From a virus, in UHGV virus genome UHGV-0140088: a stretch of DNA of 17,862 nucleotides; one strand, written 5' to 3'. Every line of letters begins with the position of its first letter. Positions within the stretch are counted from its first letter, which is position 1. This document shows positions 2,732 to 17,862 of this stretch, piece after piece. The translations under genes and the position numbers were made by a program. The notes beneath the pieces are model-generated. The model had not been told where the DNA came from. It did no database searches and was given only the letters and a program-made list of their open reading frames with translations.

Positions 2732-3142
2732 TCATTCGTACCTCATGTCGGTAAATCTGACACCCTGACCAATAGCCCAGGCTGTTGTGTACTCGATCAG
2801 ACTTGCCATACGCTTCACGCTCATCTGCGCGCTGCTTTCGCGAATGTTGACGTATTCGCCTTCAAGGCCGGGTAAAACATCAGCTTCCTGCTTTGTTGCC
2901 ACTGCATGACCGCTGATCAACAAAACCTTCCATTGTTCCGGTTTTAACCATTTGCCGCACCATTGAACCTGACGAGCGATATCCGCCAGCATCACGTGAA
3001 ATTTTGCGTTCTGGTCAAGGTTGCGCTTGTAGTCAGTAATGCGGATGGTGACTGGCTTGTCTTTATCGAGTGGTGTTGCGAGGATGGCATTTATTGCGGC
3101 TTGCTGTTGTTGCTTAGTTCGGAGGAAGATTGTTTGCTTCAT
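2732..3142 (-). CDS. ninB: NinB/Orf-family recombination mediator
   Basis: 136-aa product with NinB-like layout (…[37 protein letters not shown]…), similar to lambda NinB as recalled, in the expected position downstream of the replication genes. Confidence 0.7.
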
Positions 3143-3775: not shown

Positions 3776-5212
3776 TCAGAATCCTCCTTTCTTCTTGGAC
3801 TGCGGTTCCTCGCGTTCACGTCGGCGCATTTCAGCAGACTGTTGGTCTGTGTCATAAATAGCGCCATTTGCCTGAATGCAATACACCGTGCCGGTATTGC
3901 CATGACGATTGAGACGAAGGATTAGTTCGGTTTCACCAGGTGGAACACTGTCATCAAAAGCGCCTTCACGATGGATCCCAACCCAATAATCGCAATCCTG
4001 TTCAATCTGCCCTGTATCTCGTGAGTCACTTGGTAATGGGCGTTTATTGGTTCGGCTTTCCAGTGCGCGGTTAAGCTGCGTCAGAAGCACAACAACGCAA
4101 TCAAGCTCTTTGGCAAGGTTCTTCAGTCCTTTGGTGATCATGCCGTAAGCAAGGTCGTTGCGATCGGCCTTCTCAGCGGTCATTAGTGTCAGGTAATCGA
4201 CCAGAATCATGCCAACACATCCTTTTTCTCGCTTGATTCGACGGCTTTCGCTGACGATTTGAGCCAGAGATAATCCCGGCGTGTCGTCGATGTAAAGCAT
4301 GTCGATTTCACTCAAGCGATTAGCTGTTTCGATCGCCCTGTTGAAGTCACCATCGTAATCACCCTGATAGCCGTCATCAGCGTCATTTGTCGCCGGAAGG
4401 TAAAAAATATTCGGGTTAACACCAGACTTCTGCCCTACCAGTTTTTCCAGTATCTGATCACCTGGCATTTCAAGGCTGAACATCAAAGCGGGCTTTTTCT
4501 CATGCACTGCGCAATTGATTGCCATCTGGCTGTATAGCGTCGTTTTCCCCATCTTAGGGCGAGCGCCAATGACAAACAGAGAGCCTTTCACCAGGCCTTT
4601 CGGTGACAGCATCCTGTCCAGCGATGGGATCCCTGTGCTCATTCCTCGTTGTTCGCCTGACGGATCAAATCGCTTCTCAAGGTCGCTAACCCAGTCTTCC
4701 ATGACCTCACCAAATGAGCGAAGGCCGCGACGCGATCCGGTTTTTGCATGGTCTGTCAGTTGCGTGAAAATCGCCTGAATAGCTTCGTACTTCTGCGTTG
4801 CAGTCATTCCGTTGCGGGAATAGAGCAATTCCGTCGCTTCAGTCATGCGGTTGATGGCGTAGCGTTCCATTGCGGTTTCACGAACCTGCATTGCATAGGC
4901 AACGATGTTTGCTGCGCTTGGCGTGTTCTTTGCGATCTCAGCGATATAAGCAAAACCGCCAACAGACGCCGTTAACGATTTACGCTCCAGTTCATCGAAA
5001 AGCGTCAGGCCATCTACTGGCTTTTGCTCCCGGTGCATTCTGGTTATCTCTTCGAAAAGGATTTTGTGTGGTCGGCTGTAAAATGAATCAGGCTTCAGCA
5101 TCGCCAGAACTTTCTGGACGCGCTCACTGCTGTCATCATCCAGAAGCAATCCACCAATCACCGCCTGCTCTGCCTCGATGCTATGGGGCGGCGCATAAAA
5201 ATTATCGGTCAT
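3776..5212 (-). CDS. Replicative DNA helicase, DnaB family (P22 gene 12-like)
   Basis: 478 aa from the ATG at 5212 (GAGGGTG RBS; 7 bp after the O stop). Walker A GARPKMGKT, Walker B-like ILVDYLTLM, and an N-terminal DnaB-like domain (IEAEQAVIGGLLLD). Confidence 0.9.
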   Translation of the reverse strand: MTDNFYAPPHSIEAEQAVIGGLLLDDDSSERVQKVLAMLKPDSFYSRPHKILFEEITRMHREQKPVDGLTLFDELERKSLTASVGGFAYIAEIAKNTPSAANIVAYAMQVRETAMERYAINRMTEATELLYSRNGMTATQKYEAIQAIFTQLTDHAKTGSRRGLRSFGEVMEDWVSDLEKRFDPSGEQRGMSTGIPSLDRMLSPKGLVKGSLFVIGARPKMGKTTLYSQMAINCAVHEKKPALMFSLEMPGDQILEKLVGQKSGVNPNIFYLPATNDADDGYQGDYDGDFNRAIETANRLSEIDMLYIDDTPGLSLAQIVSESRRIKREKGCVGMILVDYLTLMTAEKADRNDLAYGMITKGLKNLAKELDCVVVLLTQLNRALESRTNKRPLPSDSRDTGQIEQDCDYWVGIHREGAFDDSVPPGETELILRLNRHGNTGTVYCIQANGAIYDTDQQSAEMRRREREEPQSKKKGGF

Positions 5213-6092
5213 CGTGTTCACCCTCACGAACTTTCAGGTAGGTATTGTCGTTAAGCAGGAAATCAAATCCCTTTTTGTGCCAGACGGTTCCGCGTTGATG
5301 GTTTGGGCGTTCTTCGAACATCCATCGGCAATTTTCGCCTACGTAGCTCAAATAATTTCTCCAGTCCTGCATCGTGAACCCATGCCCGTCAAGCTGGCGG
5401 GTTATCACTCCGGCTTTGCGCCAGAACGTTCGGATCTGGTTTTTACGCTTGTCATTCAGTGCGCGGATTCTTGGCGCTTCAGGAAGGATTTCGTGGTAAG
5501 CATCGACAACATCCTGACAGCTAACGGAAGGTTTTTTCTTGTCAGACTTTTTGTCTGCTGTGGCACTCTCTAATACGTCAGTATTAGAGATATTATTTAT
5601 ATTATTGTTTATGGACAACCGTTGGACAACCGTTGGACAATCTCCGCTGAGAGCCGCGCCATTACTGGTGTTTGCGTTGGACAACCGTTGGACAACCGTT
5701 GGACAATTTTTTGCCTGAAAATCGTCATATTTAACGATTGTAAACAGGCTAAATTTCTTCCCCATCGAGCAAATATTAAGCATCCCTTTCGACTCAAAAG
5801 TCCGTAATAAGCTCCGAACTTTGTTGTCGGGGATGAATGTTTCTCTGACCAGCGACGGGCGTCCAGTTATCATCTGACCGCGATCAACAGTTATCGGACC
5901 GATATCCGTATTGACGACAGTAGATTCGTGATTAGCCTTGAGGATTAAGTGAAGCCAAAGATGTACTGCCTGAGAGTCCTTATAGAGTCTGCTGTCCATA
6001 AACTGGCGGTGTATAGAGACATACCCCATACTGGATGCCTCCTGATGTTGTACAGGGTTATGCCTGTAATCAGCTAACTTAACGACGCCCAT
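5202..6092 (-). CDS. Replication initiator, lambda O / P22 gene 18-like, containing the origin iterons
   Basis: The ORF contains tandem iterons encoding the repeated peptide CPTVVQRLS, with a winged-helix-like N-terminal region. Position is between cII and the helicase. Alternative ATG at 6029 with AGGAGG upstream. Confidence 0.7.
   Translation of the reverse strand: MGVVKLADYRHNPVQHQEASSMGYVSIHRQFMDSRLYKDSQAVHLWLHLILKANHESTVVNTDIGPITVDRGQMITGRPSLVRETFIPDNKVRSLLRTFESKGMLNICSMGKKFSLFTIVKYDDFQAKNCPTVVQRLSNANTSNGAALSGDCPTVVQRLSINNNINNISNTDVLESATADKKSDKKKPSVSCQDVVDAYHEILPEAPRIRALNDKRKNQIRTFWRKAGVITRQLDGHGFTMQDWRNYLSYVGENCRWMFEERPNHQRGTVWHKKGFDFLLNDNTYLKVREGEHDDR
5612..5706. repeat. Phage replication origin iterons: two clusters of the 11-bp unit GGACAACCGTT, flanked by an AT-rich tract (5585-5610)
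   Basis: tggacaaccgttggacaaccgttggacaa at 5612-5640 and ttggacaaccgttggacaaccgttggacaa at 5687-5706; the adjacent atattatttatattattgtttat tract is AT-rich. All lie inside the O-like gene, as in lambda ori. Confidence 0.75.
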
Positions 6093-6240
6093 GTTTCACT
6101 CCTGCTTTGGCTAGTCTGTAAACACCAACAAGGCGCTCTGCGAACGCCCTGTTATTTGCTGCGGCTACCACTAATCCCTCAGGTGAATCAGGGTGTCGAA
6201 TCTCTTCTTTTTCCTGGTATTTCTTACGACGTTTTGTCAT
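6079..6240 (-). CDS. Possible small basic ORF (53 aa) between cII and O
   Basis: ATG at 6240, product MTKRRKKYQEKEEIRHPDSPEGLVVAAANNRAFAERLVGVYRLAKAGVKHGRR; the stop overlaps the O start region. Below the track length cutoff; coding status uncertain. Confidence 0.25.
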   Translation of the reverse strand: MTKRRKKYQEKEEIRHPDSPEGLVVAAANNRAFAERLVGVYRLAKAGVKHGRR

Positions 6241-6274
6241 AATGACTCCTGTGGATTGATCCAGTCTTTCTACA

Positions 6275-6553
6275 TCAGGCCTCGAAGAATTCGCCGTTCT
6301 TCGGGGCTTTTTCTTTTGTCAGCATTCTGGCTACTTTCTTAGCCAGTTCCGCCAACTCCTCGTCTTCAACACCCCATTCAAGAACAGCCAGAAGCATTCC
6401 CATTTTTGGGATAAAGCTGTCTTTCCATCGCGAAATTTGCGATTCATTAATCCCTAACGCATCAGCAACCTTTCGCTGACCACGTACAGCAATTCGATTC
6501 AGGATGTTGCTTGTAATTGCATTCGCTTTCTTGCGAGTACTTGTAAGTTCCAT
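6275..6553 (-). CDS. cII: CII-type lysogeny activator (P22 C1-like)
   Basis: 92 aa from the ATG at 6553 (MELTSTRKKANAITSNILNRIA...). Contains the HTH and the ...SQISRWK...MLLAVLEWGV... block shared with lambda CII. The track ORF extending to 6640 runs across nutR and is rejected. Confidence 0.8.
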   Translation of the reverse strand: MELTSTRKKANAITSNILNRIAVRGQRKVADALGINESQISRWKDSFIPKMGMLLAVLEWGVEDEELAELAKKVARMLTKEKAPKNGEFFEA

Positions 6554-6610
6554 ATGTAAGTATTTCCTTAACAAATAAGAAGTTATGCGCATCAACTTAT
6601 GCGCGTTGTA

Positions 6611-6654
6611 TTCCCGCATTTCGGCGGGAATGAGGACCATGACTGTTAAAGAGC
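6611..6654 (-). promoter_or_regulatory. nutR: boxA (GCTCTTTAACA) plus boxB hairpin (TCCCGCCGAAATGCGGGA)
   Basis: Minus-strand sequence between the cro stop and cII carries a boxA consensus-like element followed ~13 nt later by a 6-bp stem-loop identical to the one at nutL. Confidence 0.6.
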
Positions 6655-6661
6655 AATTTGC

Positions 6662-6847
6662 TTATGCCGCTTTGCGGTAAGCGCTTTCTTGATACTTCAG
6701 GGCGCCAGCTGTAACGACTTCCAGTCGATAGGCGTCTTTCTCTGGGATGACTTCCTTCCACTGAGAGACTGCTGCGTCGCTAATGCCTAACGCTTTAGCT
6801 ACAGCACGCTGGGTTCCGAAGTGGTCGATAACATCTTTCTTGTACAT
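6662..6847 (-). CDS. cro: Cro repressor (P22 Cro-like)
   Basis: 61-aa product MYKKDVIDHFGTQRAVAKALGISDAAVSQWKEV... with an HTH, divergent from the repressor gene across the operator region. Confidence 0.85.
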   Translation of the reverse strand: MYKKDVIDHFGTQRAVAKALGISDAAVSQWKEVIPEKDAYRLEVVTAGALKYQESAYRKAA

Positions 6848-6927: not shown

Positions 6928-7578
6928 ATGAAAACTCAATTGATGGGAGAGCGCATTCGCGCTCGGAGAAAAGAACTCAAGATCAGGCAGGCCGCACTTG
7001 GAAAGATGGTCGGCGTGTCTAATGTTGCCATATCTCAGTGGGAACGCTCTGAGACAGAGCCAAATGGAGAGAATCTTCTCGCCCTGGCTAATGCGTTGAA
7101 GTGTTCCCCTGACTATCTGATGAAAGGAGAGGAAAGTCTTTCAAACATTGCCTATCACAGTAGGCATGATCCAAGAGGGTCATACCCTCTGATTAGCTGG
7201 GTGAGCGCAGGATGCTGGATGGAAGCTGTAGAACCATATCATAAGCGTGCAATAGATAACTGGTACGATACAACCGTAGACTGTTCAGACGATTCGTTTT
7301 GGTTGGACGTGAAGGGAGACTCAATGACGGCTCCGGCCGGTCTCAGTATCCCTGAAGGAATGATAATACTCGTCGATCCTGAAGTAGAGCCGCGTAACGG
7401 GAAACTGGTAGTTGCAAAGCTCGAAGGAGAAAACGAGGCAACTTTCAAGAAGTTAGTTATTGATGCAGGCAGGAAGTTTCTAAAACCACTTAACCCACAA
7501 TATCCGATGATCGAGATCAACGGGAACTGCAAAATCATCGGCGTAGTTGTCGATGCAAAACTAGCAAACCTTCCATAA
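6928..7578 (+). CDS. c2: Prophage repressor, CI/C2 type (HTH plus S24 LexA-like autopeptidase)
   Basis: 216-aa product with an N-terminal HTH (LKIRQAALGKMVGVSNVAISQWE) and C-terminal S24 motifs (GDSM, Ala-Gly cleavage site, Lys). Closely resembles P22 C2 as recalled. Confidence 0.9.
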   Translation: MKTQLMGERIRARRKELKIRQAALGKMVGVSNVAISQWERSETEPNGENLLALANALKCSPDYLMKGEESLSNIAYHSRHDPRGSYPLISWVSAGCWMEAVEPYHKRAIDNWYDTTVDCSDDSFWLDVKGDSMTAPAGLSIPEGMIILVDPEVEPRNGKLVVAKLEGENEATFKKLVIDAGRKFLKPLNPQYPMIEINGNCKIIGVVVDAKLANLP

Positions 7579-7579
7579 G

Positions 7580-7602
7580 GGGGCATTCGCCCCTTTTTTT
7601 TA
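7580..7602 (+). terminator. Rho-independent terminator after the repressor gene
   Basis: GGGGC/GCCCC 5-bp stem with loop ATTC, followed by 9 consecutive T. Confidence 0.8.
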
Positions 7603-7639
7603 TTTCCTTTAAAAATCAAAGCCAAACTTAAGTTACGAA

Positions 7640-7698
7640 AGAAAATTTAAGTTTTCTTCAAAAATACTCTTGACCATTAATTAAAGAGATCTTAAATT
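7640..7698 (+). promoter_or_regulatory. OL/PL region: PL-like promoter overlapped by an 18-bp operator
   Basis: TTGACC (7670-7675), 17-bp spacer, TAAATT (7693-7698). Operator ATTAAAGAGATCTTAAAT (7680-7697) is a near-perfect palindrome matching the OR operators. An additional 16-bp palindrome GAAAATTTAAGTTTTC lies at 7640-7655. Confidence 0.6.
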
Positions 7699-7744
7699 TA
7701 AGCCATCAGCAGGACGCTGGTAGCCAAACGGAACAGATTGGCAG

Positions 7745-7785
7745 GCTCTTTAACATTGATGGGATTGTCCCGCCGAAATGCGGGA
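7745..7785 (+). promoter_or_regulatory. nutL: boxA (GCTCTTTAACA) plus boxB hairpin
   Basis: boxA at 7745-7755 and stem-loop TCCCGCCGAAATGCGGGA at 7768-7785, the same sequence as at nutR, upstream of the N-like gene. Confidence 0.6.
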
Positions 7786-7892
7786 ACCAAAGAGTAGTTG
7801 GCTTTGGGGTGACGTGAAGTGCAGCTGCACGACGGCAACCGGAAGATAAGCACCCGGCGCGTCACCGCCAAAGTCAATCATCGGAGGTCAAC

Positions 7893-8192
7893 ATGACAGT
7901 AGTCATTACATATCTGGCTGACGATAACGCCAGAAATCGCCGCAGAGCACGCAGACAGGCTCAACGTGAACAGGCAATGCAAGAGCAGCGACTGGCGCGA
8001 AAAATTGCGCTAAAGCTCTCTGGTTGCGTCAGAGCAGATAAAGCAGCATCGCTCGGAAGCCTTCGCTGCAAGAAGGCAGAAGAAGTCGAGCGTAAACAGA
8101 ACCGTATTTACTACCGCAAGCCACGCAGTGAAATGGGTGTGACTTGTGTTGGTCGCCAGAAAATGAAATTAGGCAGCAAACCACTTATTTGA
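7893..8192 (+). CDS. N: N-like transcription antiterminator
   Basis: 99-aa basic protein with an arginine-rich motif near the N-terminus (NARNRRRARRQAQREQ). First gene of the PL operon, downstream of nutL. Confidence 0.6.
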   Translation: MTVVITYLADDNARNRRRARRQAQREQAMQEQRLARKIALKLSGCVRADKAASLGSLRCKKAEEVERKQNRIYYRKPRSEMGVTCVGRQKMKLGSKPLI

Positions 8193-8200
8193 GGTGATAT

Positions 8201-8464
8201 ATGGACAAGAAAATTAAATCATTGAAGCCAGGAATTGTTATCAGAGACATAAGCGGTTATTACGATACAGATACATATGATATTTTATATGTGCATGCAG
8301 ATGGAAAATGTCAGTATTCGAACGACATTTTTAATAATAAAGGTGATGCCGAAATTGCTGCCACCACAGTTAATAAAGAGTTAGTAGCTAATGAGTCGTG
8401 GGATTATTTTATGCCATCATCCACTTCTATGAACTGGAAAGTGGTTTTGTACATTCCATCATAA
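8201..8464 (+). CDS. Hypothetical protein, AT-rich accessory gene 1 (87 aa)
   Basis: ATG at 8201 preceded by GAGGTG. Codon usage is visibly AT-rich compared with neighbouring core genes. No recognisable motif. Confidence 0.55.
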   Translation: MDKKIKSLKPGIVIRDISGYYDTDTYDILYVHADGKCQYSNDIFNNKGDAEIAATTVNKELVANESWDYFMPSSTSMNWKVVLYIPS

Positions 8465-8502
8465 TTGTAGCTGCCGTTCAAAAATGAAAGTAAATCTAAC
8501 AT

Positions 8503-8528
8503 CACAGGCCGCATAGTCGGCCTTCTTT
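8503..8528 (+). terminator. Possible intrinsic terminator between accessory genes 1 and 2
   Basis: AGGCCG/CGGCCT 6-bp stem with 6-nt loop, followed by TCTTTTGG. Confidence 0.35.
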
Positions 8529-8577
8529 TGGTATAAACAACAGAATAAACACTGCACTGAATTATTTGAGGTGAGAT

Positions 8578-9048
8578 ATGACAAAATCATGGAGCGTACC
8601 TTTTCCTGAATCAGAAACTGAACATGATGGAATGCCTGTTTTCTGGAGATTCCAAGCGACAGTTGAAGAAGATGGGATCAAAATATTCGCACTTCAATAT
8701 ATAGCTTTTCATCAGACAGAGCATTATGCATGGTTGGTTCCTGCGCATTGGATTGTTAATTTTAAACCAGCACCAAATCAGTGGTTACAGGAATGGAAAC
8801 AAAGGAGAAATAGATATGCAATTAAGAAAGTAGCAAAAAATGCAGAAAGATCTTTTGCATTCCCAACGAAGAAACTTGCCATTGAAAGTTTATTGCGCCG
8901 GAAGAAATACCATTTGATGCGAATCAAACAAGATTTAGCTGTTGTATCAACTCTTGTTGATGGGATGAAGAATATTGATACATCAACACCAGATATTGAA
9001 TATAACTTTGGACACAACCAAGAAACAGAAAATTGGGTGTTTTATTAG
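8578..9048 (+). CDS. Hypothetical protein, AT-rich accessory gene 2 (156 aa)
   Basis: ATG at 8578 preceded by the same ttatttgaggtga(t/g)atATG initiation context as gene 1. Trp-rich N-terminal half and a strongly basic segment (KQRRNRYAIKKVAKNAERSF...RRKKYHLMRIKQ). Confidence 0.55.
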   Translation: MTKSWSVPFPESETEHDGMPVFWRFQATVEEDGIKIFALQYIAFHQTEHYAWLVPAHWIVNFKPAPNQWLQEWKQRRNRYAIKKVAKNAERSFAFPTKKLAIESLLRRKKYHLMRIKQDLAVVSTLVDGMKNIDTSTPDIEYNFGHNQETENWVFY

Positions 9049-9152
9049 TACGAATAAGCACTGTGTATTCATTCCAACGAGTGAATACACGGAGCAATGT
9101 CGCTCGTAACTAAACAGGAGCCGACTTGTTCTGATTATTGGAAATCTTCTTT

Positions 9153-9176
9153 GCCCTCCAGTGTGAGGGCTTTTTT
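9153..9176 (+). terminator. Rho-independent terminator closing the accessory insert
   Basis: GCCCTC/GAGGGC stem with loop CAGTGT, followed by TTTTTT. Confidence 0.7.
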
Positions 9177-9242
9177 ATATGCATACCAATAACGCTTCAT
9201 TCGAGGCGTTTTCGTTATGCAATCAAACAGAAGGAGCATCCT

Positions 9243-9413
9243 ATGCAACAGTTCGCTATTGCAGGGGCGGCATCGGTTCGCCCTTTCAACCCGATTTTAT
9301 CGGTACAGCATTCACGAAAAAATATTTTAACCGGAGCAGACTTTAAACAACCAAGAATGAAAAGTTTGCTCGAAAAGCTTTGGGATATTTTGAAACAACA
9401 AGGCCGTCCATGA
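9243..9413 (+). CDS. cIII: CIII-like protein (FtsH inhibitor family)
   Basis: 56-aa product MQQFAIAGAASV...LLEKLWDILKQQGRP resembles lambda CIII (MQYAIAGW...LIDILNQPGVP) as recalled. AAGGAG RBS 6 nt upstream. The track's longer ORF from 9138 overlaps the terminator and is rejected. Confidence 0.6.
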   Translation: MQQFAIAGAASVRPFNPILSVQHSRKNILTGADFKQPRMKSLLEKLWDILKQQGRP

Positions 9414-9517
9414 GTTTTACAGATAACTGGTCAGACGAAGAATTCATTCGTCAGATGAACAAAATGCTCAATCAGCACAAAGAACAGGAGAAAGATGATG
9501 ATTCTGACTCTGAATGA
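9410..9517 (+). CDS. Possible small acidic ORF (35 aa), translationally coupled to cIII
   Basis: ATGA overlap with the cIII stop; product MSFTDNWSDEEFIRQMNKMLNQHKEQEKDDDSDSE. Kil-like position. Below the track cutoff; uncertain. Confidence 0.25.
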   Translation: MSFTDNWSDEEFIRQMNKMLNQHKEQEKDDDSDSE

Positions 9518-9806
9518 TAAGCGTGAAATATCGCAAATAATCGCAAGTTTTACTGATGAAGATTACGAACGAATCAACAGTGAAGTTGATCGTCTCTGCA
9601 AACGTTGCGACCCAATAAGCGAAATGCTTCGCTCATATAAACCAGATGAACACACTAAGGACGCTATCGACTGGCTGGAAGATGATGACTGTAACTATCA
9701 GGAAAAAGCCGCTGAATGGTTCTGGGATGCAATAACCGAAAGAGTTAAGGCTGAATATGCCTTCGCAATATTCAAACGCAGACACATTTTTGGAGAAGTT
9801 GCATGA
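9495..9806 (+). CDS. Hypothetical protein (103 aa) upstream of, and coupled to, recT
   Basis: The stop overlaps the RecT ATG (GCATGA). Acidic, with a CxxC pair (CKRCD). Position is analogous to gam/abc in lambda/P22. Confidence 0.45.
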   Translation: MMILTLNDKREISQIIASFTDEDYERINSEVDRLCKRCDPISEMLRSYKPDEHTKDAIDWLEDDDCNYQEKAAEWFWDAITERVKAEYAFAIFKRRHIFGEVA

Positions 9807-10705
9807 GCAATATCGTTGAATTCGTTAAACAGCAGGAGCAGTTATTCTGCGGAGCATTGACTGAACAGACGGTGACATGGGCTAAGGAAAGCCAGTTTGC
9901 AATTCAGTATTTCCAGAAAAACGATTACCTGGCTAAAACAGCACTGGCAAATCCAACCAGCGCACAGAACGCCATCATCAATGTTGCGGCGATCGGCATC
10001 ACCTTAAACCCGGCCAGCAAACTGGCTTATCTGGTTCCTCGCGACGGCATGGTGTGCCTTGATATCAGTTACATGGGATTACTTCATCTTGCGCAATCGA
10101 CAGGATCAATTAAGTGGGGGCAATGCAAACTGGTGTACTCAAACGACACCTATGAATCAAATGGCCTTGATTCAGCACCAACCCACAAATACAACGCATT
10201 TGGTGAGCGAGGCTCTATTGTTGGAGGTTATTGCACGGTTAAAACAGCAGATGGTGACTACCTGACTGAAGAAATGAGTCTGGCAGAAATTAAAGCTGTG
10301 GAAGCAACGAGCAAGGCAAAGAATGGACCGTGGAAAACATTCTGGGAAGAGATGGCGCGTAAAACAATAGTTAAACGCGCCAGCAAATACTGGCCTAAAG
10401 CCCAGCGACTGGATAATGCCATTCACCTTCTTAACGAAGATGAAGGTATGCATCAGGAACCAGTTATGCCGCACAAATCAGAGGAAGATATCCGCGAAGA
10501 TGAACGGAAACGCCAGCAGGAAATAATGGATAAAGCACAACTTCTTTGCGATGAAATGGCTCAGGCAGAAAACATGGATGATTTGAAGCGATATTTTGCA
10601 GAAGCATATCGCCTGACATCTGGAATGAAATTGCAGCAGAACGTACAAGCCATTTACGCAGAATGCAAAGCGAAACTGGAGGTTGCCAGTGAGCAAACTG
10701 TATGA
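9803..10705 (+). CDS. recT: RecT-family single-strand annealing recombinase
   Basis: 300-aa product with the RecT signature block NGPWKTFWEEMARKTIVKRASKYWP (compare Rac RecT NGPWVTHWEEMAKKTAIRRLFKYLP as recalled). Confidence 0.85.
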   Translation: MSNIVEFVKQQEQLFCGALTEQTVTWAKESQFAIQYFQKNDYLAKTALANPTSAQNAIINVAAIGITLNPASKLAYLVPRDGMVCLDISYMGLLHLAQSTGSIKWGQCKLVYSNDTYESNGLDSAPTHKYNAFGERGSIVGGYCTVKTADGDYLTEEMSLAEIKAVEATSKAKNGPWKTFWEEMARKTIVKRASKYWPKAQRLDNAIHLLNEDEGMHQEPVMPHKSEEDIREDERKRQQEIMDKAQLLCDEMAQAENMDDLKRYFAEAYRLTSGMKLQQNVQAIYAECKAKLEVASEQTV

Positions 10706-11171
10706 AATTGCCAATGAATACGCAAAATTGATGGATTCAGATTTAGAACCAGAGATGATTGCTGACACAATAGAAGGCATGGAAGGAGAATTTACCGATA
10801 AAATAGAGCAACTTCTTTCCGTCATTAAAAATGAATCTGGTTATGCTGAACGCCTCAAGGAAGAGGCAAAGTCGCTGAATGAGCGAGCCGCAGTAATTCA
10901 AAATAAGATTGACAGCATCAAATCATATATAGCGTCATCGCTTGAAATGGTTGGCAAGAAAAAGATTAGAGCAGGTATTCACCAGGTAACAATCCGCAAA
11001 CCGTCAGAAACTGTAGAAATCATCGACTCAAGCGCCCTTCCTCCTGAATACGTTGAGTTCGAAACGACAATTAAAGCCGACAAGTTGGCAATCAAGCACC
11101 AACTAAAAGCAGGAATAAATATCCCCGGCGCTCAACTCAAGGTTGGGAAACCTTCACTTCTTATCAAATAA
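10689..11171 (+). CDS. Gp157-like protein (Siphovirus Gp157 family), the usual RecT partner
   Basis: GTG start 6 nt after GGAGG; ~160 aa, coiled-coil-rich; immediately downstream of recT, the usual Gp157 arrangement. Assignment is by recall of the family, not a computed match. Confidence 0.5.
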   Translation: MSKLYEIANEYAKLMDSDLEPEMIADTIEGMEGEFTDKIEQLLSVIKNESGYAERLKEEAKSLNERAAVIQNKIDSIKSYIASSLEMVGKKKIRAGIHQVTIRKPSETVEIIDSSALPPEYVEFETTIKADKLAIKHQLKAGINIPGAQLKVGKPSLLIK

Positions 11172-11182
11172 CGGTATCGACT

Positions 11183-11497
11183 ATGAAAAAGACTCCATGG
11201 GAGAAATGGGAAGTCGATTTCTTGCGCGAAGTAGCGGCGACAATGCCAGTTCAAGTTATCGCTGAAAAACTGGAAAGGACTGAAAAAGCAGTAATGGCAA
11301 AAGCAACAAGGATTGGCGCTGACATTGTTAGCCGACTTCGTGGAAGACGCTGGACAAGAGCCGAAGTATCACTTTTCGGTAAGTTCTCCGCAGAAGAAAT
11401 AGCAATTGCAACCTGCCGCTCAATTTATTCAGTAAGAGCTATGCGATACAAGCTAAAAAAACTCGATGAAGAAAGAGCAGGCATACGAATAAATTAA
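11183..11497 (+). CDS. Hypothetical protein with two Myb/SANT-like Trp-containing repeats; putative DNA-binding
   Basis: 104 aa; repeats PWEKWEVDFLRE...IAEKLERTEKAV and RRWTRAEVSLFGKFSAEEIAIATCRS. Confidence 0.4.
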   Translation: MKKTPWEKWEVDFLREVAATMPVQVIAEKLERTEKAVMAKATRIGADIVSRLRGRRWTRAEVSLFGKFSAEEIAIATCRSIYSVRAMRYKLKKLDEERAGIRIN

Positions 11498-11513
11498 CAT
11501 GGAGTAATTAACA

Positions 11514-11795
11514 ATGAAGCTAAACATCGACCTCGGAAAATACGTTATTACCGGAACCAAACACGACCTGATTCTTAGTGAAAGAGGAATTATCAAAGAA
11601 GGCGAGAATGCAGGGAAAGAAACACTAAGTCGTATCGGTTATTACAGCAAGTTTGAGCATCTGGTTAAAGAGTTATGCAACCGTGAAATCCTGTTATCTC
11701 AGGCGCAGACGCTACAGGATATTCAGCAGCATATCGAAACTTTAGGTATGTCACTTAGCATGGCTATTGACCAGTTAGTGGAGAGTAAATCATGA
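11514..11795 (+). CDS. Hypothetical protein (93 aa)
   Basis: ATG with an upstream GGAG; AT-rich codon usage; no recognisable motif. Confidence 0.45.
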
Positions 11796-11952
11796 GAGGA
11801 CTTGCATACAATCCCGGCATTCTTCCGGCAGAAATGATTATTCGCCAACGAGTAAAGCCAATGCCATCGAGAGAGGAATTGCTTAAGAGAAATTCTTTTC
11901 CTTCAGTAAATCAAAACAAATATCTGAATGCGATGTGGCGGAGTGGGAAGAA

Positions 11953-12528
11953 ATGAAACAAATGTCACTAATTGAGATGGATGGATTTCTGAAAGGTAAA
12001 TGCATCCCACGAGATTTAAAGGTTAACGAAACAAACGCTGAATATCTGGTGCGTAAGTTCGGTGAGCTTGAATCAAAACTGGAAACGGCGTTGCGGGAGT
12101 GTCGTTCTGCTGGAATCACGATTGATAACCTTGAGGCCAAGTGCGCGGCGCTGGCAGCGGAGAGTGCGGGGCTAAAGGCGATATGTGATGACCGTCGCAG
12201 GTTCATCATGAATGGGGTGCAGATGGGTTATATCAAGGTGCCAGCAGCGGAAACAGATCCAGACCTTGAGACAATTCGCATTGCTATATCACCACAAAAG
12301 CCCATTCCAGCCACTGATGCTTTCCTGTCTGAAGTGCGGGCGCAGGGGGTGGATGCTGCTATAGAAGCTGCAAAAAATCTGGTGGTCCAAGAATATGAGT
12401 ATAAGGATTTCAAAGCGGCGCAGAGTGATTGCTGTATGCACCCTGGTTCAGACCTGGTAGGGAAGGTTGAAATGACTGAGTGGTTAGTTGACTTTGCTGC
12501 CCAGCTTCGCAAAGGAGGCAACCAGTGA
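11953..12528 (+). CDS. Hypothetical coiled-coil protein (about 192 aa)
   Basis: In-frame ATG at 11953 (the track begins at GTG 11935). Ala/Glu-rich coiled-coil region. The stop overlaps the next gene's GTG. Confidence 0.45.
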
Positions 12529-13136
12529 GCGAAATTAATTACCAGGCACTACGTGAGGCGGCAGAACGTGCAACTCCAGCAATGGAACGCCTGTTAATGT
12601 TGCCAGTTGATGATGATCTGATAAGCGAACAGGAACTTAAAGATAGCGGTGTTGATATTGATGCCCTCAACGCCTTCAAATTTCTGGCCGGACCAGAAAC
12701 CGTGCTGGCGCTACTGGATGAGAGCAACGCATTAGAGGAAACGCGTATCAACGATGTTTGTCGTATTGCAGAACTAACAAAACAACTGGAGTTGGCAAAA
12801 TCAAAACTCAACGAGCAGCGTGAGTATTACGAGGGCGTTATCTCGGATGGAAGTAAGCGCATTGCAGAACTGGAAGCACGGGAAATAAAACCAGCCAAAG
12901 GTGAAGTTCTTGTCGTTGTTTCTGGTTTTACTGGTTGCGGAAAAAGCGCCATTGCCGGGGAAATAGAAATCGCGATGAAGGCTATTGGTGTACCGGTTAA
13001 GTGGACTAATGGCGATGCAGAAAAGCGCATGACAGGAGCTGACTGGCTGACAGCGATTGAGATGTACAAACCAACAGTGCGCATCGTGGAAGTTAATGTG
13101 CCACGCGCCGCTGGCATTCGCATCAAAGGAGAGTGA
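12525..13136 (+). CDS. Ead/Ea22-like protein with a C-terminal P-loop-like segment
   Basis: N-terminus [20 protein letters not shown] matches the conserved Ea22-family start (QALREAAEKAT) as recalled. The C-terminal part contains VLVVVSGFTGCGKS (GxxGxGKS). Confidence 0.55.
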   Translation: MSEINYQALREAAERATPAMERLLMLPVDDDLISEQELKDSGVDIDALNAFKFLAGPETVLALLDESNALEETRINDVCRIAELTKQLELAKSKLNEQREYYEGVISDGSKRIAELEAREIKPAKGEVLVVVSGFTGCGKSAIAGEIEIAMKAIGVPVKWTNGDAEKRMTGADWLTAIEMYKPTVRIVEVNVPRAAGIRIKGE

Positions 13137-13137
13137 G

Positions 13138-13893
13138 ATGATTCACTATCACGGTGGTCCTATTACTCCGGATACGTGCGCAATGAGAGCATGGAAAGGG
13201 CGACATGCGTTTATCAGTTTTGCGCATTCAGGCCAGATCAATCTCGCTGCTGAATACTGTCAGTCGTTCGCGCTGGACAACGGTGCATTCACCGCCTGGA
13301 AAGCAGCTGGCAAAAACAAAATCGACTGGAGCGATTACTACGAGTTTGTCGCTCGCTGGAAGAATCACCCAGGATTCGATTTTGCCATTATCCCTGATGT
13401 TATTGATGGCGGAGAGGAAGAAAATGATGCGCTTCTGAATGAGTGGCCTCACGGAAAACTAGTTGGCGTTCCAGTGTGGCACATGAATGAAAGTGACGAG
13501 CGATTTATTCATTTGTGCAATGAGTTTCCGCGAGTGGCTATCGGTAGTTGTGGCGACTATGACGTAAAGCGCCCAACTCTTGCGGTAGCCAGAATGAAAG
13601 ACCTGATTCGTCACATTGTTGATGAGCATGGTCAGCCGGTTACGAAACTACATGGATTGCGCATGTTAAATCCGCTGATATTCACAAAATTACCCTTAGC
13701 CAGCGCAGATAGTACGAACGTCGCTCGAAACATCGGTATTGATAAAGCCTGGTCTGGGGCTTATGCACCTGCAAGTAAAGAGACACGCGCAGCATTAATG
13801 GTAGAACGGATTGAGGCACACAATAGCCCTGGTTCTCTTGCGTATTGTGAACAACGCGACCGCTTTGAAATGCAATTGCAACTAGCAGTTTAA
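13138..13893 (+). CDS. Conserved prophage protein, possibly tRNA-guanine transglycosylase-like (DpdA-like)
   Basis: 251 aa from the ATG at 13138 (AAGGAGAG RBS). Short motifs resemble TGT-family blocks: FALDNGAF (TGT DSGGFQ), RVAIGSCGDY (Gly-rich strand), KLHGLRM (LHxFG-like) and ADSTNVARNIG (TGT DCVMPTRNARNG). Tentative. Confidence 0.4.
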   Translation: MIHYHGGPITPDTCAMRAWKGRHAFISFAHSGQINLAAEYCQSFALDNGAFTAWKAAGKNKIDWSDYYEFVARWKNHPGFDFAIIPDVIDGGEEENDALLNEWPHGKLVGVPVWHMNESDERFIHLCNEFPRVAIGSCGDYDVKRPTLAVARMKDLIRHIVDEHGQPVTKLHGLRMLNPLIFTKLPLASADSTNVARNIGIDKAWSGAYAPASKETRAALMVERIEAHNSPGSLAYCEQRDRFEMQLQLAV

Positions 13894-13903
13894 GGATTAA
13901 CAA

Positions 13904-14782
13904 ATGACCACTATAACCAAAGAGCGGCTACTGACAATCAAGCAGTGGCGCGAAATATACGGACCTGGCAGCAACGTTGTACTGCCAGCAGAAGAAGCGG
14001 AAGAACTGGCACGAATTGCTCTGGCATCGCTGGAAGCAGAGCCTGTTCTGTATCAGTCCTGCACTCGCCCCACCTGGAATAGCGGTGTTCCGTGGACGGA
14101 ATGGAAAGAACGTAGTCGTGAGTGCTACGAAGACGATTTGCGTTTTACAGACACGCCTGACCATGCCGGTTGGATATACAAATGTCGAAAACTATACACC
14201 ACTCCGCCAGCGCCGATAGCGTTAGAGGCCATTGAAAACGCAATTGAATACATTCGTAGTATCGCTTTTCACATCGATGAAGACGATTACCACGGCAAAC
14301 ATATTGCGTATTTCATGCGACAAGCATTGGCCTGGCTGGAAGGGCATTCATGCAGCGACGACAGACTGGGTAAAGCCGACAATCAACCAGTACGCGGCAA
14401 CCAGGCTGCCGAATCCAATCGCGGTAATGAGTGGACCGGCAATCCTGATATTGATAACGCAATCATCATGCTCGATCGCATAGATACGCTGGAAAGTTGC
14501 GATGATGACCGTATTGAGGCTGTTAAGGCTGTTTTGCGTAGACTGGCTGGCAACTATCCGGTAATTCCGGATAGTTGGATAAGCTGTAGTGAGCGAATGC
14601 CGGATACCAAAACAGCCGTTCTTGTTGCCGTGGAGTTTGACAGGAAAGGTGACTGGCGAATGAAATGGGCGACTTACATCCCGGGGCATCCTGACGCTAA
14701 TGATGGGTGGGTAATACCTGGTGCGTCGTGGATACCATCACACTGGATGCCTCTACCTGAACCGCCGCAGGAGGCGAAATGA
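13904..14782 (+). CDS. DUF551-type C-terminal domain protein
   Basis: 292 aa; the C-terminus WISCSERMPDTKTAVLVAV...GWVIPGASWIPSHWMPLPEPP matches the DUF551 pattern common in enterobacterial prophage accessory regions (recalled). Confidence 0.55.
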   Translation: MTTITKERLLTIKQWREIYGPGSNVVLPAEEAEELARIALASLEAEPVLYQSCTRPTWNSGVPWTEWKERSRECYEDDLRFTDTPDHAGWIYKCRKLYTTPPAPIALEAIENAIEYIRSIAFHIDEDDYHGKHIAYFMRQALAWLEGHSCSDDRLGKADNQPVRGNQAAESNRGNEWTGNPDIDNAIIMLDRIDTLESCDDDRIEAVKAVLRRLAGNYPVIPDSWISCSERMPDTKTAVLVAVEFDRKGDWRMKWATYIPGHPDANDGWVIPGASWIPSHWMPLPEPPQEAK

Positions 14783-15039
14783 TGGATGTAAAAGAGAAGG
14801 TTTTGCAGGTGATGCGTTCCCGGGCTGCCCTGCAAGATAAAGCTCTCGGCGGGGAATATCCATTCAGGATGGCAACCTGGAATCTGCGGTTGGCAATGGA
14901 GAAGGAATTTCCTGATGAAGAATGGCGTTCGGCAGATTTGCGCAAAATTCTTATGGAGCTGGCTAAAGACGGAACAGTATCCAAAGATACCCATGCCAGC
15001 CGGATTGGTCAGGCGGTATGGAGACTGGAGGTGAGGTAA
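14779..15039 (+). CDS. Hypothetical protein (86 aa)
   Basis: ATGA overlap with the upstream stop; no recognisable motif. Confidence 0.45.
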   Translation: MMDVKEKVLQVMRSRAALQDKALGGEYPFRMATWNLRLAMEKEFPDEEWRSADLRKILMELAKDGTVSKDTHASRIGQAVWRLEVR

Positions 15040-15323
15040 TGGTTAACCTGCAACTTGCCGTTAAAGGTGAATACTTCGATGCCATGATTCGCGGGGAGAA
15101 AACGGAAGAGTATCGCCTGTGTAATGACTACTGGAATAAGCGCCTCGTTAACCGTAAGTATGACCGCCTGATTATCACAAAGGGATATCCGAAGCGCGAA
15201 GACTTCAGTCGCAGAATTGACGTCCCGTATAACGGATATGAAGTGAAGACAATCACACATCCGCACTTTGGCGATAAACCGGTAAAGGTATACGCGATAA
15301 AGGTGAATATCGACACTGAATAA
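15039..15323 (+). CDS. ASCH (PUA-like) domain protein
   Basis: 94 aa from the ATG at 15039 (GGAGGTGAGG RBS). Product MVNLQLAVKGEYFDAMIRGEKTEEYRL... fits the ASCH pattern (ikpeyfdaI-sGkKt-E-R). Confidence 0.5.
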   Translation: MVNLQLAVKGEYFDAMIRGEKTEEYRLCNDYWNKRLVNRKYDRLIITKGYPKREDFSRRIDVPYNGYEVKTITHPHFGDKPVKVYAIKVNIDTE

Positions 15324-15327
15324 CAAT

Positions 15328-15382
15328 CCTCGCACTCGCGGGGATTTCTTTTATCTGAACTCGCTACGGCGAGTTTTGTTTT
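15328..15382 (+). terminator. Tandem intrinsic terminator-like hairpins after the ASCH gene
   Basis: Hairpin 1: CCTCGC/GCGGGG with loop ACTC, then ATTTCTTTT. Hairpin 2 (15358-15382): AACTCGC/GCGAGTT with loop TACG, then TTGTTTT. Confidence 0.55.
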
Positions 15383-15395
15383 ATGGAGACAAGAA

Positions 15396-15740
15396 ATGTC
15401 AGATTTGGCTATGAAGGTTTTGAAATGGCAATCGACTGGCGATGTTGGCATCAGTAGCGCAACTCTTGCCTCAATCGCATGTGGACTGAAAAAGAATATC
15501 TATGGTCATCACTTCGGTGCTCCACATGACGCAGCCGATTTCCGACGATGCGTTGCGCTTGTCGAGCAGATTCCAGAAATCAGGGATTCATTCGACAAGG
15601 TTGCAAAGCGCGTTCCGGCATTCAAAGGAATCCTCAACGAATGGGATTCCCTCGTTGCTCTGTTGAAGTCTGAAATGAAGATACACGGAAACAAAGCACC
15701 AGAGACTTACAGGAGAATCAGCGAGTTACGAAAGGACTAA
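15396..15740 (+). CDS. Hypothetical protein (114 aa)
   Basis: ATG ORF between the terminators and xis; no recognisable motif. Confidence 0.45.
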   Translation: MSDLAMKVLKWQSTGDVGISSATLASIACGLKKNIYGHHFGAPHDAADFRRCVALVEQIPEIRDSFDKVAKRVPAFKGILNEWDSLVALLKSEMKIHGNKAPETYRRISELRKD

Positions 15741-15829: not shown

Positions 15830-16177
15830 GTGGAAGAAGAAATCTTCACTCGTGAAGAGGCAGCGTCGTATCTGAAGGTAGACAAAGGCACTATCACGCA
15901 GTGGATACGAAGTGGACGACTTCAGGCCGCAAAGATAAATCCAGATAAACCTAAAAGCCCATATCGCATTTGCAAGTCAGACTGCATTGCGGCGCTTAAG
16001 TCTGTGAGACACAATAGCGCGGTGAATGCGGTTGATGTGCAGGAGGTTAAAGCATGTCAATCAAACTACGCGGTGGCACGTGGCACTGCGATTTCGTCGC
16101 GCCAGATGGATCAAGAGTTAGACGCTCTCTTGAAACATCGGACAAGAGGCAAGCGCAAGAACTTCACGATCGTCTGA
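15830..16177 (+). CDS. xis: Excisionase (HTH, Xis/AlpA-like)
   Basis: GTG start 7 nt after GGAG. HTH segment REEAASYLKVDKGTITQWIRSGRL. The 3' end overlaps the integrase start, as usual for xis-int pairs. Confidence 0.65.
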   Translation: MEEEIFTREEAASYLKVDKGTITQWIRSGRLQAAKINPDKPKSPYRICKSDCIAALKSVRHNSAVNAVDVQEVKACQSNYAVARGTAISSRQMDQELDALLKHRTRGKRKNFTIV

Positions 16178-17214
16178 AAGCAGAAGCGTGGAGAGTAAAA
16201 AATCTCGGAGAATCACCGAAAAAGCTATTCAAGGAAGCCTGCATACGGTGGCTGCGTGAGAAATCGGATAAGAAGTCCATTGATGATGACAAGAGCATTA
16301 TATCGTTCTGGATGTTGCACTTCAGAGAAACCATTCTCTCTGACATAACAACAGAAAAAATAATGGAGGCGGTAGACGGGATGGAAAACCGCCGCCATCG
16401 CCTGAACTGGGAAATGAGCCGGGACAGGTGTTTGCGGCTTGGCAAGCCAGTGCCGGAGTATAAACCAAAGCTGGCAAGCAAAGGAACGAAGACGCGGCAT
16501 CTGGCAATACTTCGCGCTATTCTCAATATGGCTGTTGAATGGGGATGGATTGACAGGGCACCCAAAATATCAACACCACGCGTTAAGAATGGACGAATCA
16601 GATGGCTTACAGAGGAGGAATCGAAGCGCCTGTTTGCAGAAATTGCTCCTCATTTCTTCCCTGTGGTCATGTTTGCAATCACGACAGGCCTTCGCCGTTC
16701 CAACGTTACAGACCTTGAGTGGTCACAGGTCGATCTGGATAAGAAAATGGCATGGATGCACCCTGATGAAACAAAAGCTGGCAATGCGATCGGAGTTCCT
16801 CTTAACGAAACTGCATGCCAGATATTAAGAAAACAGCAGGGTCTCCATAAGAGATGGGTATTTGTCCACACCAAACCTGCCTACCGAAGCGACGGAACAA
16901 AAACAGCAGCGGTAAGGAAGATGAGAACCGACAGCAACAAGGCATGGAAGGGAGCGTTAAAGCGGGCAGGCATTAGCAACTTCCGCTTCCATGACCTGAG
17001 GCATACTTGGGCAAGCTGGCTGGTTCAGTCCGGTGTCTCTCTTCTCGCACTTAAAGAGATGGGAGGATGGGAAACTCTCGAAATGGTTCAAAGATATGCC
17101 CACCTTTCAGCCGGGCATCTCACCGAGCACGCGAGCAAAATCGATGCGATTATAAGTCGCAATGGCACAAATACGGCACAAGAGGAGAACGTAGTTTACT
17201 TAAATGCGAGGTAA
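16054..17214 (+). CDS. int: Tyrosine site-specific integrase (P22-type)
   Basis: 386 aa; C-terminal catalytic region with R...HDLRHTWASWLVQSGVSLLALKEMGGWETLEMVQRYAHL (R-H-R-Y family). Lies adjacent to the tRNA attachment site. Confidence 0.9.
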   Translation: MSIKLRGGTWHCDFVAPDGSRVRRSLETSDKRQAQELHDRLKAEAWRVKNLGESPKKLFKEACIRWLREKSDKKSIDDDKSIISFWMLHFRETILSDITTEKIMEAVDGMENRRHRLNWEMSRDRCLRLGKPVPEYKPKLASKGTKTRHLAILRAILNMAVEWGWIDRAPKISTPRVKNGRIRWLTEEESKRLFAEIAPHFFPVVMFAITTGLRRSNVTDLEWSQVDLDKKMAWMHPDETKAGNAIGVPLNETACQILRKQQGLHKRWVFVHTKPAYRSDGTKTAAVRKMRTDSNKAWKGALKRAGISNFRFHDLRHTWASWLVQSGVSLLALKEMGGWETLEMVQRYAHLSAGHLTEHASKIDAIISRNGTNTAQEENVVYLNAR

Positions 17215-17228
17215 CTTATTGATTTAAC

Positions 17229-17304
17229 TGGTGCCGATAATAGGAGTCGAACCTACGACCTTCGCATTACGAATGCGCTGCTCTACCAACTGAGCTATAT
17301 CGGC
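17229..17304 (-). tRNA. thrW: tRNA-Thr (anticodon CGU)
   Basis: Minus-strand 76-nt sequence GCCGATATAGCTCAGTTGGTAGAGCAGCGCATTCGTAATGCGAAGGTCGTAGGTTCGACTCCTATTATCGGCACCA: 7-bp acceptor stem, D-arm GCTC/GAGC, anticodon CGT at positions 34-36, T-loop TTCGACT, CCA end. Confidence 0.9.
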
Positions 17305-17418: not shown

Positions 17419-17862
17419 TTACGCACGAATGGTGTAATCACCAATGCCGATCCACTTGTAAGTGGTCAGAGCTTCCAGCCCCATTGGGCCGCGCGCGTGG
17501 AGTTTTTGTGTGCTTACCGCAACTTCCGCCCCCAGACCAAACTGGCCGCCGTCGGTAAAACGCGTAGAGGCGTTAACGTAAACAGCGGAGGAATCCACTT
17601 CGTTAACAAAACGCTGGGCGTTGCGCATATCGCGGGTCAGGATCGCATCGGAGTGTTGCGTGCCGTGTTCACGAATATGGGCAATGGCGTCATCCAGATC
17701 GCTAACGATTTTGACGTTCAAATCTAATGACAGAAACTCATCGTCATACTCTTCGGCTTTAACAGCCACCACCTTCGCGGGGCCTGCCTGCAACTGCGCC
17801 AGCGCGGCTGCATCAGCGTGTAACGTCACGCCGCTTTCCGCCATTTGTTTGCTTAATGCGGG
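17419..17862 (-). CDS. proA: Gamma-glutamyl phosphate reductase, 3' portion (gene continues beyond the window)
   Basis: Translation ends ...[20 protein letters not shown], the ProA C-terminus as recalled. The proA-thrW adjacency fits a chromosomal prophage attachment locus. Confidence 0.9.

Follow-up and report, generated by a model that had tools for sequence, protein, structure and literature searches.

The dpdA gene and its relatives

Virus genome UHGV-0140088, a stretch of 17,862 nucleotides referred to here as the window, is a mosaic lambdoid or P22-like E. coli prophage; the genome that matches it best does so at 99.7% identity across 74% of its length. The gene considered here, called dpdA, is an uninterrupted open reading frame (ORF) of 251 codons followed by a stop, located on the plus strand at 13138-13893. 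It forms part of an early-left (PL-type) operon (7893-15323, plus strand, recognized from PHROG and Pfam matches), in which it is placed between two Ead/Ea22-like genes (11935-13136, plus strand) and a DUF551/EaA-like gene (13904-14782, plus strand). The reverse strand of 13138-13893 contains many stops. A strong Shine-Dalgarno element, AAGGAG, can be read in the plus-strand sequence at 13126-13131, six bases 5' of the ATG at 13138. The TGA of the upstream Ead/Ea22-like gene occupies 13134-13136, with one base between this stop and the dpdA start, and this spacing makes translational coupling of the two genes probable. The homologues likewise begin with MIHYHGGP and span 247-256 residues. A longer ORF, starting with TTG at 13057, is rejected as the gene because of this shared start and length, and the Shine-Dalgarno element precedes the ATG at 13138.

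The product was proposed in a sequence-only reading to be a possible DpdA-like member of the tRNA-guanine transglycosylase (TGT) family, on the basis of four short motifs, and all four are present in the 251-residue protein. FALDNGAF (13267-13290, residues 44-51) lies at the end of β-strand 3 and contains D47, the predicted general acid/base. RVAIGSCGDY (residues 132-141) contains the conserved glycines of its GSCG segment, G136 and G139, and KLHGLRM (13645-13665, residues 170-176) forms part of β-strand 7 and contains H172. ADSTNVARNIG (13705-13737, residues 190-200) is in β-strand 8 and provides D191, the predicted nucleophile. The string DCVMPTRNARNG, which had been given as the TGT counterpart of this last motif, occurs literally in the E. 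coli Tgt sequence. In addition to these four motifs, the segment P86-D87-V88 (13393-13401) holds D87, which is predicted to be involved in recognition of the base. All five segments are encoded on the plus strand.

The protein matches PHROG 887, annotated as 'queuine tRNA-ribosyltransferase', with E = 5.9e-103. In a tblastn search of the 251-residue sequence against 50,697 phage genomes, the close relatives include the Stx1a-converting phage Stx1a_EH2115 (98.4% amino acid identity, E = 3e-168, in an unannotated record), gp23 of Salmonella phage BTP1 (93.6%, E = 2e-162), Salmonella phage SPN3UB (93.2%, E = 7e-161) and phage SfI (68%, E = 3e-113). The same search also recovers phage HK106 (36%, E = 9e-32) and the DpdA proteins of Pantoea phage MED16 (38%, E = 3e-34), Salmonella phage 7-11 (35.9%, E = 3e-24) and Pseudomonas phage Iggy (25%, E = 2e-4), the last of which shares 67.6% identity with 9g DpdA. 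The BTP1 orthologue is a named product in RefSeq.

Most of these phages have been catalogued. Hutinet et al. 2019 (Nat Commun 10:5442, PMC6884629) describe a group 3, 'DpdA only', and draw attention to a gamma-proteobacterial cluster of singleton DpdAs; Supplementary Data 1 of that paper lists BTP1 (SIU02687), SPN3UB (YP_007011024), SfI (YP_009147480), HK106 (YP_007151699), SEN1 and 7-11 as having a DpdA without any other pathway gene. The MED16 paper places its protein in the same cluster under the name DpdA/TGT_1 and reports for it an HHpred probability of 99.2% to 2ASH. The proteins of the 'DpdA only' phages have about 234-261 residues and, as in the window, no preQ0 genes accompany them in the phage. 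BTP1 and SPN3UB carry the same gene as the window, and in BTP1 it occupies the same position, between Ead/Ea22-like and EaA-like genes of the early-left region. Unlike those two Salmonella phages, the window copy belongs to an E. coli prophage at thrW. The family assignment is thus already known, and the window gene is a re-identification of a catalogued family.

The relationship to DpdA proteins of phages that encode the preQ0 pathway is established by profile comparison. An alignment of 88 diverse sequences related to the window protein was compared with an alignment of seven DpdA1 proteins from preQ0-pathway phages (9g, Iggy, R7M, RHEph04, a Synechococcus phage, Dp-1 and Rosebush). In two hhalign runs the two profiles match with a probability of 99.4% over about 170 columns (E = 1.3e-21 and 5.2e-21). 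Against single sequences of validated DpdA1 enzymes the probability is 98.1% for 9g, 98.6% for Iggy, 97.8% for Dp-1 and 93.3% for Rosebush. The profile alignment pairs D47, D87, H115, E118, H172 and D191 of the window protein with D72, D114, H141, E144, H196 and D215 of 9g DpdA, respectively. These aligned residues are 93-100% conserved in the family; D47, D87, H115, H172 and D191 are each at least 93% conserved across the 88 diverse relatives, and the range is 95-100% for D47, 97-99% for D87 and 93-100% for D191. G136 is also among the 93-100% conserved residues, while G139 is less so (75% in the diverse set). His196 of 9g, the partner of H172, is the histidine that separates DpdA from DpdA2, in which it is absent (Hutinet 2019, PMC6884629). 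The PHROG match, the DpdA1 profile match and the location of conserved residues within the quoted motifs all bear out the original assignment to the TGT superfamily as a DpdA-like protein. Of the two profile searches that had been suggested for checking it, the one against DpdA gave the match just described and the one against the Pfam TGT family gave none.

The gene is widespread and is strongly maintained. In a set of 5.8 billion proteins, at least 7853 of the 90%-identity clusters share words with the window protein, 812 clusters at 50% identity match it with E ≤ 1e-3, and a relative is encoded at no fewer than 576 places in IMG/VR. Among 5426 complete E. coli genomes, 204 (about 4%) have the gene, which is labelled 'hypothetical protein' in every one. 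Between window positions 13138-13890 and the Salmonella copies, protein identity is about 93-94% and DNA identity only about 81%. The corresponding nonsynonymous divergence (dN) is about 0.04 and the synonymous divergence (dS) is saturated (>2), with a dN/dS ratio of 0.014-0.017. The gene is under very strong purifying selection, which is unusually tight for the 'non-essential' ea region in which it is found.

Predicted fold and comparison with other family members

The 251-residue protein is predicted to be a TIM barrel. The AlphaFold2 model, calculated from a 118-sequence alignment, has a mean predicted local distance difference test score (pLDDT) of 89.4 and a predicted template modelling score (pTM) of 0.87, and consists of eight alternating β/α units. 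In this model D47, D87 and D191 are located at or just past the C-terminal ends of strands 3, 4 and 8, which is the usual location of active sites in TIM barrels. A barrel with conserved Asp residues is what the sequence-only reading had suggested looking for in a predicted structure. The predicted (β/α)8 barrel appears closest to TGT-type structures, and in a structure search of BFVD all 26 named hits with E ≤ 1e-3 are phage 'queuine tRNA-ribosyltransferases'. Only the core of the barrel is predicted, without a zinc subdomain. Neither a CxCxxC motif nor a conserved Cys cluster is found across the family, and the protein therefore has no counterpart of the structural zinc site that TGT and bacterial DpdA possess.

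The DpdA1 proteins (of Enterobacteria phage 9g, Escherichia phage CAjan, Pseudomonas phage Iggy, Streptococcus phage Dp-1 and Mycobacterium phage Rosebush) have a homologous TIM-barrel core with the same Asp/Asp/His/His/Asp set, including His196 of 9g, and their sequences, like that of the window protein, show no CxCxxC zinc motif. They are longer (278-385 residues), with about 22 extra residues at the N-terminal end and about 95 at the C-terminal end, both of which are missing in the window protein. Their genes are located within folE/queD/queE/queC clusters beside replication genes, whereas the window gene stands alone. Bacterial DpdA of the Dpd restriction-modification system, as in S. Montevideo (PDB 7UI4), is a protein of 413 residues with a zinc site and a large insertion between β8 and α8, unlike the window protein. 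It requires the ATPase DpdB, and its own gene belongs to a dpdA-K island (PMC10164549). E. coli Tgt (375 residues) is about 120 residues longer than the window protein, and with the Tgt/ArcTGT family (PF01702) there is no significant sequence or profile match; both the zinc site and the C-terminal tRNA-binding parts of that family are absent from the window protein. Cap10 of type IV CBASS (cyclic-oligonucleotide-based anti-phage signalling system; PDB 9NTN), which binds a deazaguanylated CD-NTase (a nucleotidyltransferase like cGAS and DncV) and is encoded with Cap9 and CdnD, resembles the window protein in fold only, with 10% identity; it too is without a zinc site.

Proposed function and alternative explanations

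The enzyme is encoded alone. None of the preQ0 synthesis genes is present in the window, either by PHROG annotation of 31 of its ORFs or by tblastn with the FolE, QueD, QueE and QueC proteins of Iggy (E ≤ 0.01), and the same queries find none across 1.08 Mb from 80 related viral loci. The absence of these genes from the window had been noted before and holds under both methods. Because it is not linked to folE, queD, queE or queC, the window gene falls outside the pathway-encoding groups 1 and 2 and within group 3; its membership of the family is not affected. When ORFs within 2.5 kb were clustered, no neighbour was found to be common to more than 25 of 82 loci. PADLOC Dpd models match neither the window protein nor its neighbours, and the surroundings consist of ordinary lambdoid early genes, with no dpdB, dpdC or restriction genes nearby. 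The upstream Ead/Ea22-like protein (12525-13136, plus strand) has a C-terminal module of about 80 residues (121-203) with a Walker-A-like GFTGCGKS sequence. This module was considered as a DpdB-like helper and set aside, as it is next to dpdA in none of the 81 other loci and is probably not a dedicated partner. Since preQ0 genes and a conserved neighbour are both absent and the Walker-A module is limited to this window, the gene is a self-contained 'DpdA-only' module.

Taken with the homology, the fold, the conserved catalytic residues, the purifying selection and the operon context, this singleton status makes it fairly probable (roughly 0.6) that the protein is a minimal, zinc-less phage DNA guanine transglycosylase of the DpdA family, of the 'DpdA-only' subgroup known from temperate gamma-proteobacterial phages, which places a sparse mark on DNA using a base made by the host. 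What we infer here is the substrate, the product, the level of modification and the biological benefit. By homology with TGT and bacterial DpdA, D191 would attack C1' of the target deoxyguanosine in duplex DNA and displace guanine, with D47 acting as the general acid, to give an intermediate in which enzyme and DNA are covalently joined. D87 and adjacent conserved residues would hold a free 7-deazaguanine, which would then attack through N9 to yield the modified DNA. E. coli makes preQ0. Since the prophage and its relatives carry no folE, queD, queE or queC, the base, either preQ0 or its precursor ADG, would have to be drawn from the queuosine pathway of the host. That a stand-alone enzyme would have to rely on host precursors had been anticipated in the sequence-only reading, and it fits the published 'DpdA only' phage group. 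Because the tested 'DpdA only' relatives carry very little dADG, G would not be replaced in bulk; the expected outcome is a low-level dADG or dPreQ0 mark on phage DNA, probably specific to certain sequences.

Several experiments on related enzymes are consistent with this mechanism. In bacterial DpdA, the mutations D95A and D256A abolish guanine exchange (PMC10164549). The 9g DpdA is active in E. coli without a partner and, when expressed alone, produces dPreQ0 from the host pool at 790 per 10^6 nucleotides (PMC6884629). The DpdA2 of nt-1, also alone in E. coli, gives 926-1607 per 10^6 nucleotides, and none in a ΔqueD host (PMC10516641). Within the 'DpdA only' group itself, dADG has been detected in the DNA of 7-11 and MED16.

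Other observations weigh against the proposed function. In 7-11 and MED16 the modified base is dADG, not dPreQ0, and amounts to only 0.02% and 0.13% of G, respectively, far below the 1.7-32% of G that is replaced in DpdA1 phages. The guanine-site restriction enzymes that were tried cut the DNA of MED16, which resisted only enzymes sensitive to Dam methylation (MED16 paper). The mycobacterial singleton-DpdA phage Orion is unmodified; its host is without a preQ0 pathway. The two assayed members, 7-11 and MED16, are only 36-38% identical to the window protein. The predicted structure has neither the zinc subdomain nor the large β8/α8 insertion of bacterial DpdA and TGT, and in published models this insertion runs along the bound nucleic acid (PMC10164549). 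Finally, searches of Pfam (including TGT, PF01702), NCBIfam, PADLOC and PDB sequences, made with the single sequence and in some cases with two family profiles, gave no match, and hhalign against E. coli Tgt, either alone or as an alignment of 113 sequences (83-97% identical and hence of low diversity), was not significant. The controls behave in the same way: Iggy DpdA, the seven-member DpdA1 profile and the MED16 and 7-11 DpdAs were likewise negative in whichever of the Pfam, PADLOC and PDB-sequence searches they entered. The DpdA1 profile also fails against the Tgt alignment, where the top local alignment pairs FLDSGAF of 9g with TDSGGF of Tgt. Since validated DpdA1 proteins fail them too, the negative results with general libraries and with Tgt carry little weight.

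That the protein is a generic TIM barrel in which TGT-like motifs occur by chance is so improbable as to be nearly negligible. The Foldseek search against PDB is non-specific, with pyruvate kinase and the α subunit of tryptophan synthase at the top and TGT in 43rd place, and the Pfam, NCBIfam and PDB hidden Markov model searches are negative, but the relatives found by tblastn, the DpdA1 profile match and the BFVD hits effectively refute this explanation. It is also highly unlikely that the protein is a queuine or preQ1 tRNA-ribosyltransferase that modifies tRNA, at position 34 or elsewhere, and so adjusts translation in the lytic phase. RefSeq phage records and PHROG 887 name the product in this way, which together with the TGT superfamily fold would agree with such a role, yet the label is inherited from the superfamily rather than from any test. 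The Pfam TGT match is lacking, as are the zinc subdomain and the C-terminal elements with which TGT holds tRNA; DNA is the target of all the closest relatives that have been characterised by experiment, and the host already has its own Tgt. A TGT-fold protein could instead have been repurposed, either to bind or pass on a 7-deazaguanine linked to a protein or small molecule, for which Cap10 offers a comparison, or to sequester preQ0 or related bases of the host for counter-defence or regulation. We regard this as quite unlikely, given that the sequence homology is to DNA-acting DpdA1 proteins (99.4% probability) and not to Cap10, and that dADG is present in the DNA of two relatives, 7-11 and MED16. 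Nor are the partners of type IV CBASS found near the window gene: no Cap10 or other CBASS model of PADLOC matches, and there is no CD-NTase, no Cap9/QueC-like gene and no other conserved partner.

A further alternative accepts DNA as the target and doubts the outcome in E. coli. The enzyme may make no useful modification there, either because preQ0 is rapidly converted to preQ1 or because only guanine is exchanged for guanine, and the gene would be kept for another host or condition. In favour of this explanation are the unmodified DNA of Orion, the very low levels in 7-11 and MED16 (0.02-0.13% of G) and the dependence of bacterial DpdA on DpdB, a partner that is absent here. The Orion result, however, is explained by a host that has no preQ0 pathway, and 9g DpdA and nt-1 DpdA2 each work alone in wild-type E. 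coli on the host pool. The very strong purifying selection over phage copies from Escherichia, Salmonella, Serratia, Yersinia and Vibrio also points to a selected activity, and an enzyme without effect in E. coli therefore seems unlikely.

Even if the protein is a DNA guanine transglycosylase that uses a host base, a bulk protection against restriction is doubtful, because the tested relatives carry only traces of dADG and the DNA of MED16 was cut. This is the weakest part of the sequence-only interpretation, which had linked DpdA enzymes to protection from restriction. A more speculative possibility, put forward with little confidence, is that the zinc-less 'DpdA only' enzymes of temperate enterobacterial phages, such as this 251-residue protein, are not bulk modifiers against restriction. 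They could leave dADG or dPreQ0 at a few specific sites, which might imitate the 'self' mark of Dpd-type restriction-modification systems or serve as a phage epigenetic signal, or they could act, like Cap10, on a non-DNA target in counter-defence. Either would explain how 0.02-0.13% of modified G can coexist with extreme purifying selection.

About 4% of complete E. coli genomes have the gene, which is also present in BTP1, a phage of epidemic Salmonella ST313, and, with 98.4% amino acid identity, in an Stx1a-converting phage; the label given to it in E. coli by the NCBI pipeline is 'hypothetical'. No published assay of a dpdA of the BTP1 type or of the E. coli prophage type was found in a literature search. 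If the enzyme does mark phage DNA with queuosine precursors of the host, it would link host tRNA-modification metabolism to DNA modification in common temperate phages, and could influence restriction, base-calling by nanopore and the transfer of prophages. The window copy is of practical use in that it belongs to a genetically tractable, inducible lambdoid E. coli prophage and that que mutants of the host exist, so that the role of 'DpdA only' phages is directly testable there.

The prophage map and the neighbours of dpdA

For the protein-coding genes, the map of the window is based on PHROG and Pfam annotation, except that proA was recognized from its translation. At the right-hand end, an excisionase gene (15830-16177, plus strand) and an integrase gene (16054-17214, plus strand) are followed by a tRNA-Thr(CGT) gene (17229-17304, minus strand), named thrW from its position beside proA, and by the 3' end of the host proA gene (17419-17844, minus strand). 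Since the tRNA-Thr(CGT) gene is next to proA and is separated from the integrase stop by only 15 bases, the prophage is integrated at thrW beside proA, which is the classical P22-type attachment site.

The regulatory and replication genes are arranged on both sides of a CI-type repressor gene (6928-7578, plus strand). On the minus strand are genes for a Cro-like regulator (6662-6847), CII (6275-6640), an O-like initiator (5202-6092), a DnaB-like helicase (3776-5227), NinB (2732-3142), RusA (1646-2008) and a Q-like antiterminator (1040-1438). The early-left operon on the plus strand begins with an N-like antiterminator gene (7893-8192) and continues with genes for RecT (9803-10705) and a Mu Gam-like protein (10683-11171). 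It then passes through the Ead/Ea22-like genes, dpdA and the EaA-like gene to small ORFs; on the map, small ORFs occupy 14779-15740 (plus strand). On this annotated gene map, dpdA falls among the non-essential 'ea' genes of the early-left operon. There is no promoter-like site directly 5' of dpdA and no terminator-like site on the plus strand between 9210 and 15325. Two tandem terminator-like hairpins are found on the plus strand at 15325-15376, directly 3' of an ASCH-like ORF, and these may end a long early-left transcript ahead of xis and int. As the simplest reading of the gene order, dpdA would be expressed after induction or infection within the N-antiterminated early-left operon.

The ORF directly before these hairpins (15018-15323, plus strand) is two genes 3' of dpdA, past the EaA-like gene and an 86-residue ORF, and has a sub-threshold Pfam match to the ASCH domain (14.7 bits, with a cutoff of 21.2). 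BTP1 has a gene annotated as 'ASCH domain' (7725-8009 of its locus) immediately 3' of eaA, and in Pseudomonas phage Epa33 an ASCH-annotated gene (7267-7938 of its locus) is two genes 3' of the dpdA homologue. The ASCH domain is one of the PUA-like folds, among which there are readers of modified bases.

Distant homologues in Epa33, MED16 and Caulobacter phage DMCA, which are 37-47% identical to the window protein, are found near modification or pathway genes. The Epa33 homologue has a C-5 cytosine methylase of 696 residues directly downstream (4740-6830 of the locus), and MED16 has a Dam methylase six genes upstream of dpdA, about 1.2 kb away (1-283 of the locus). In DMCA, whose homologue is 37% identical, a PTPS/QueD-like ORF (5705-6001 of the locus) is directly upstream, with a borderline score of 22.5 bits against a cutoff of 22.4; it is the sole hint of a preQ0 gene that the search for such genes gave. 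In Rosebush, a ParB-like gene (1-487 of the locus) lies immediately 5' of the DpdA gene, which recalls the ParB-like ATPase DpdB; no ParB-like gene is found beside dpdA in the window.

Two other features of the prophage can be described. The recombination module consists of RecT and the Mu Gam-like end-protection protein, whose ORFs overlap by 23 bases, rather than of the Exo, Bet and Gam proteins of lambda. At the left-hand end of the window, a truncated porin ORF (201-851, plus strand; PHROG 410) adjoins the Q antiterminator gene. Only positions 145-360 of the 360-position PHROG 410 profile are matched, so that the porin is N-terminally truncated or disrupted, and it is similar to the porin genes of nmpC/lc type that lambdoid prophages carry.

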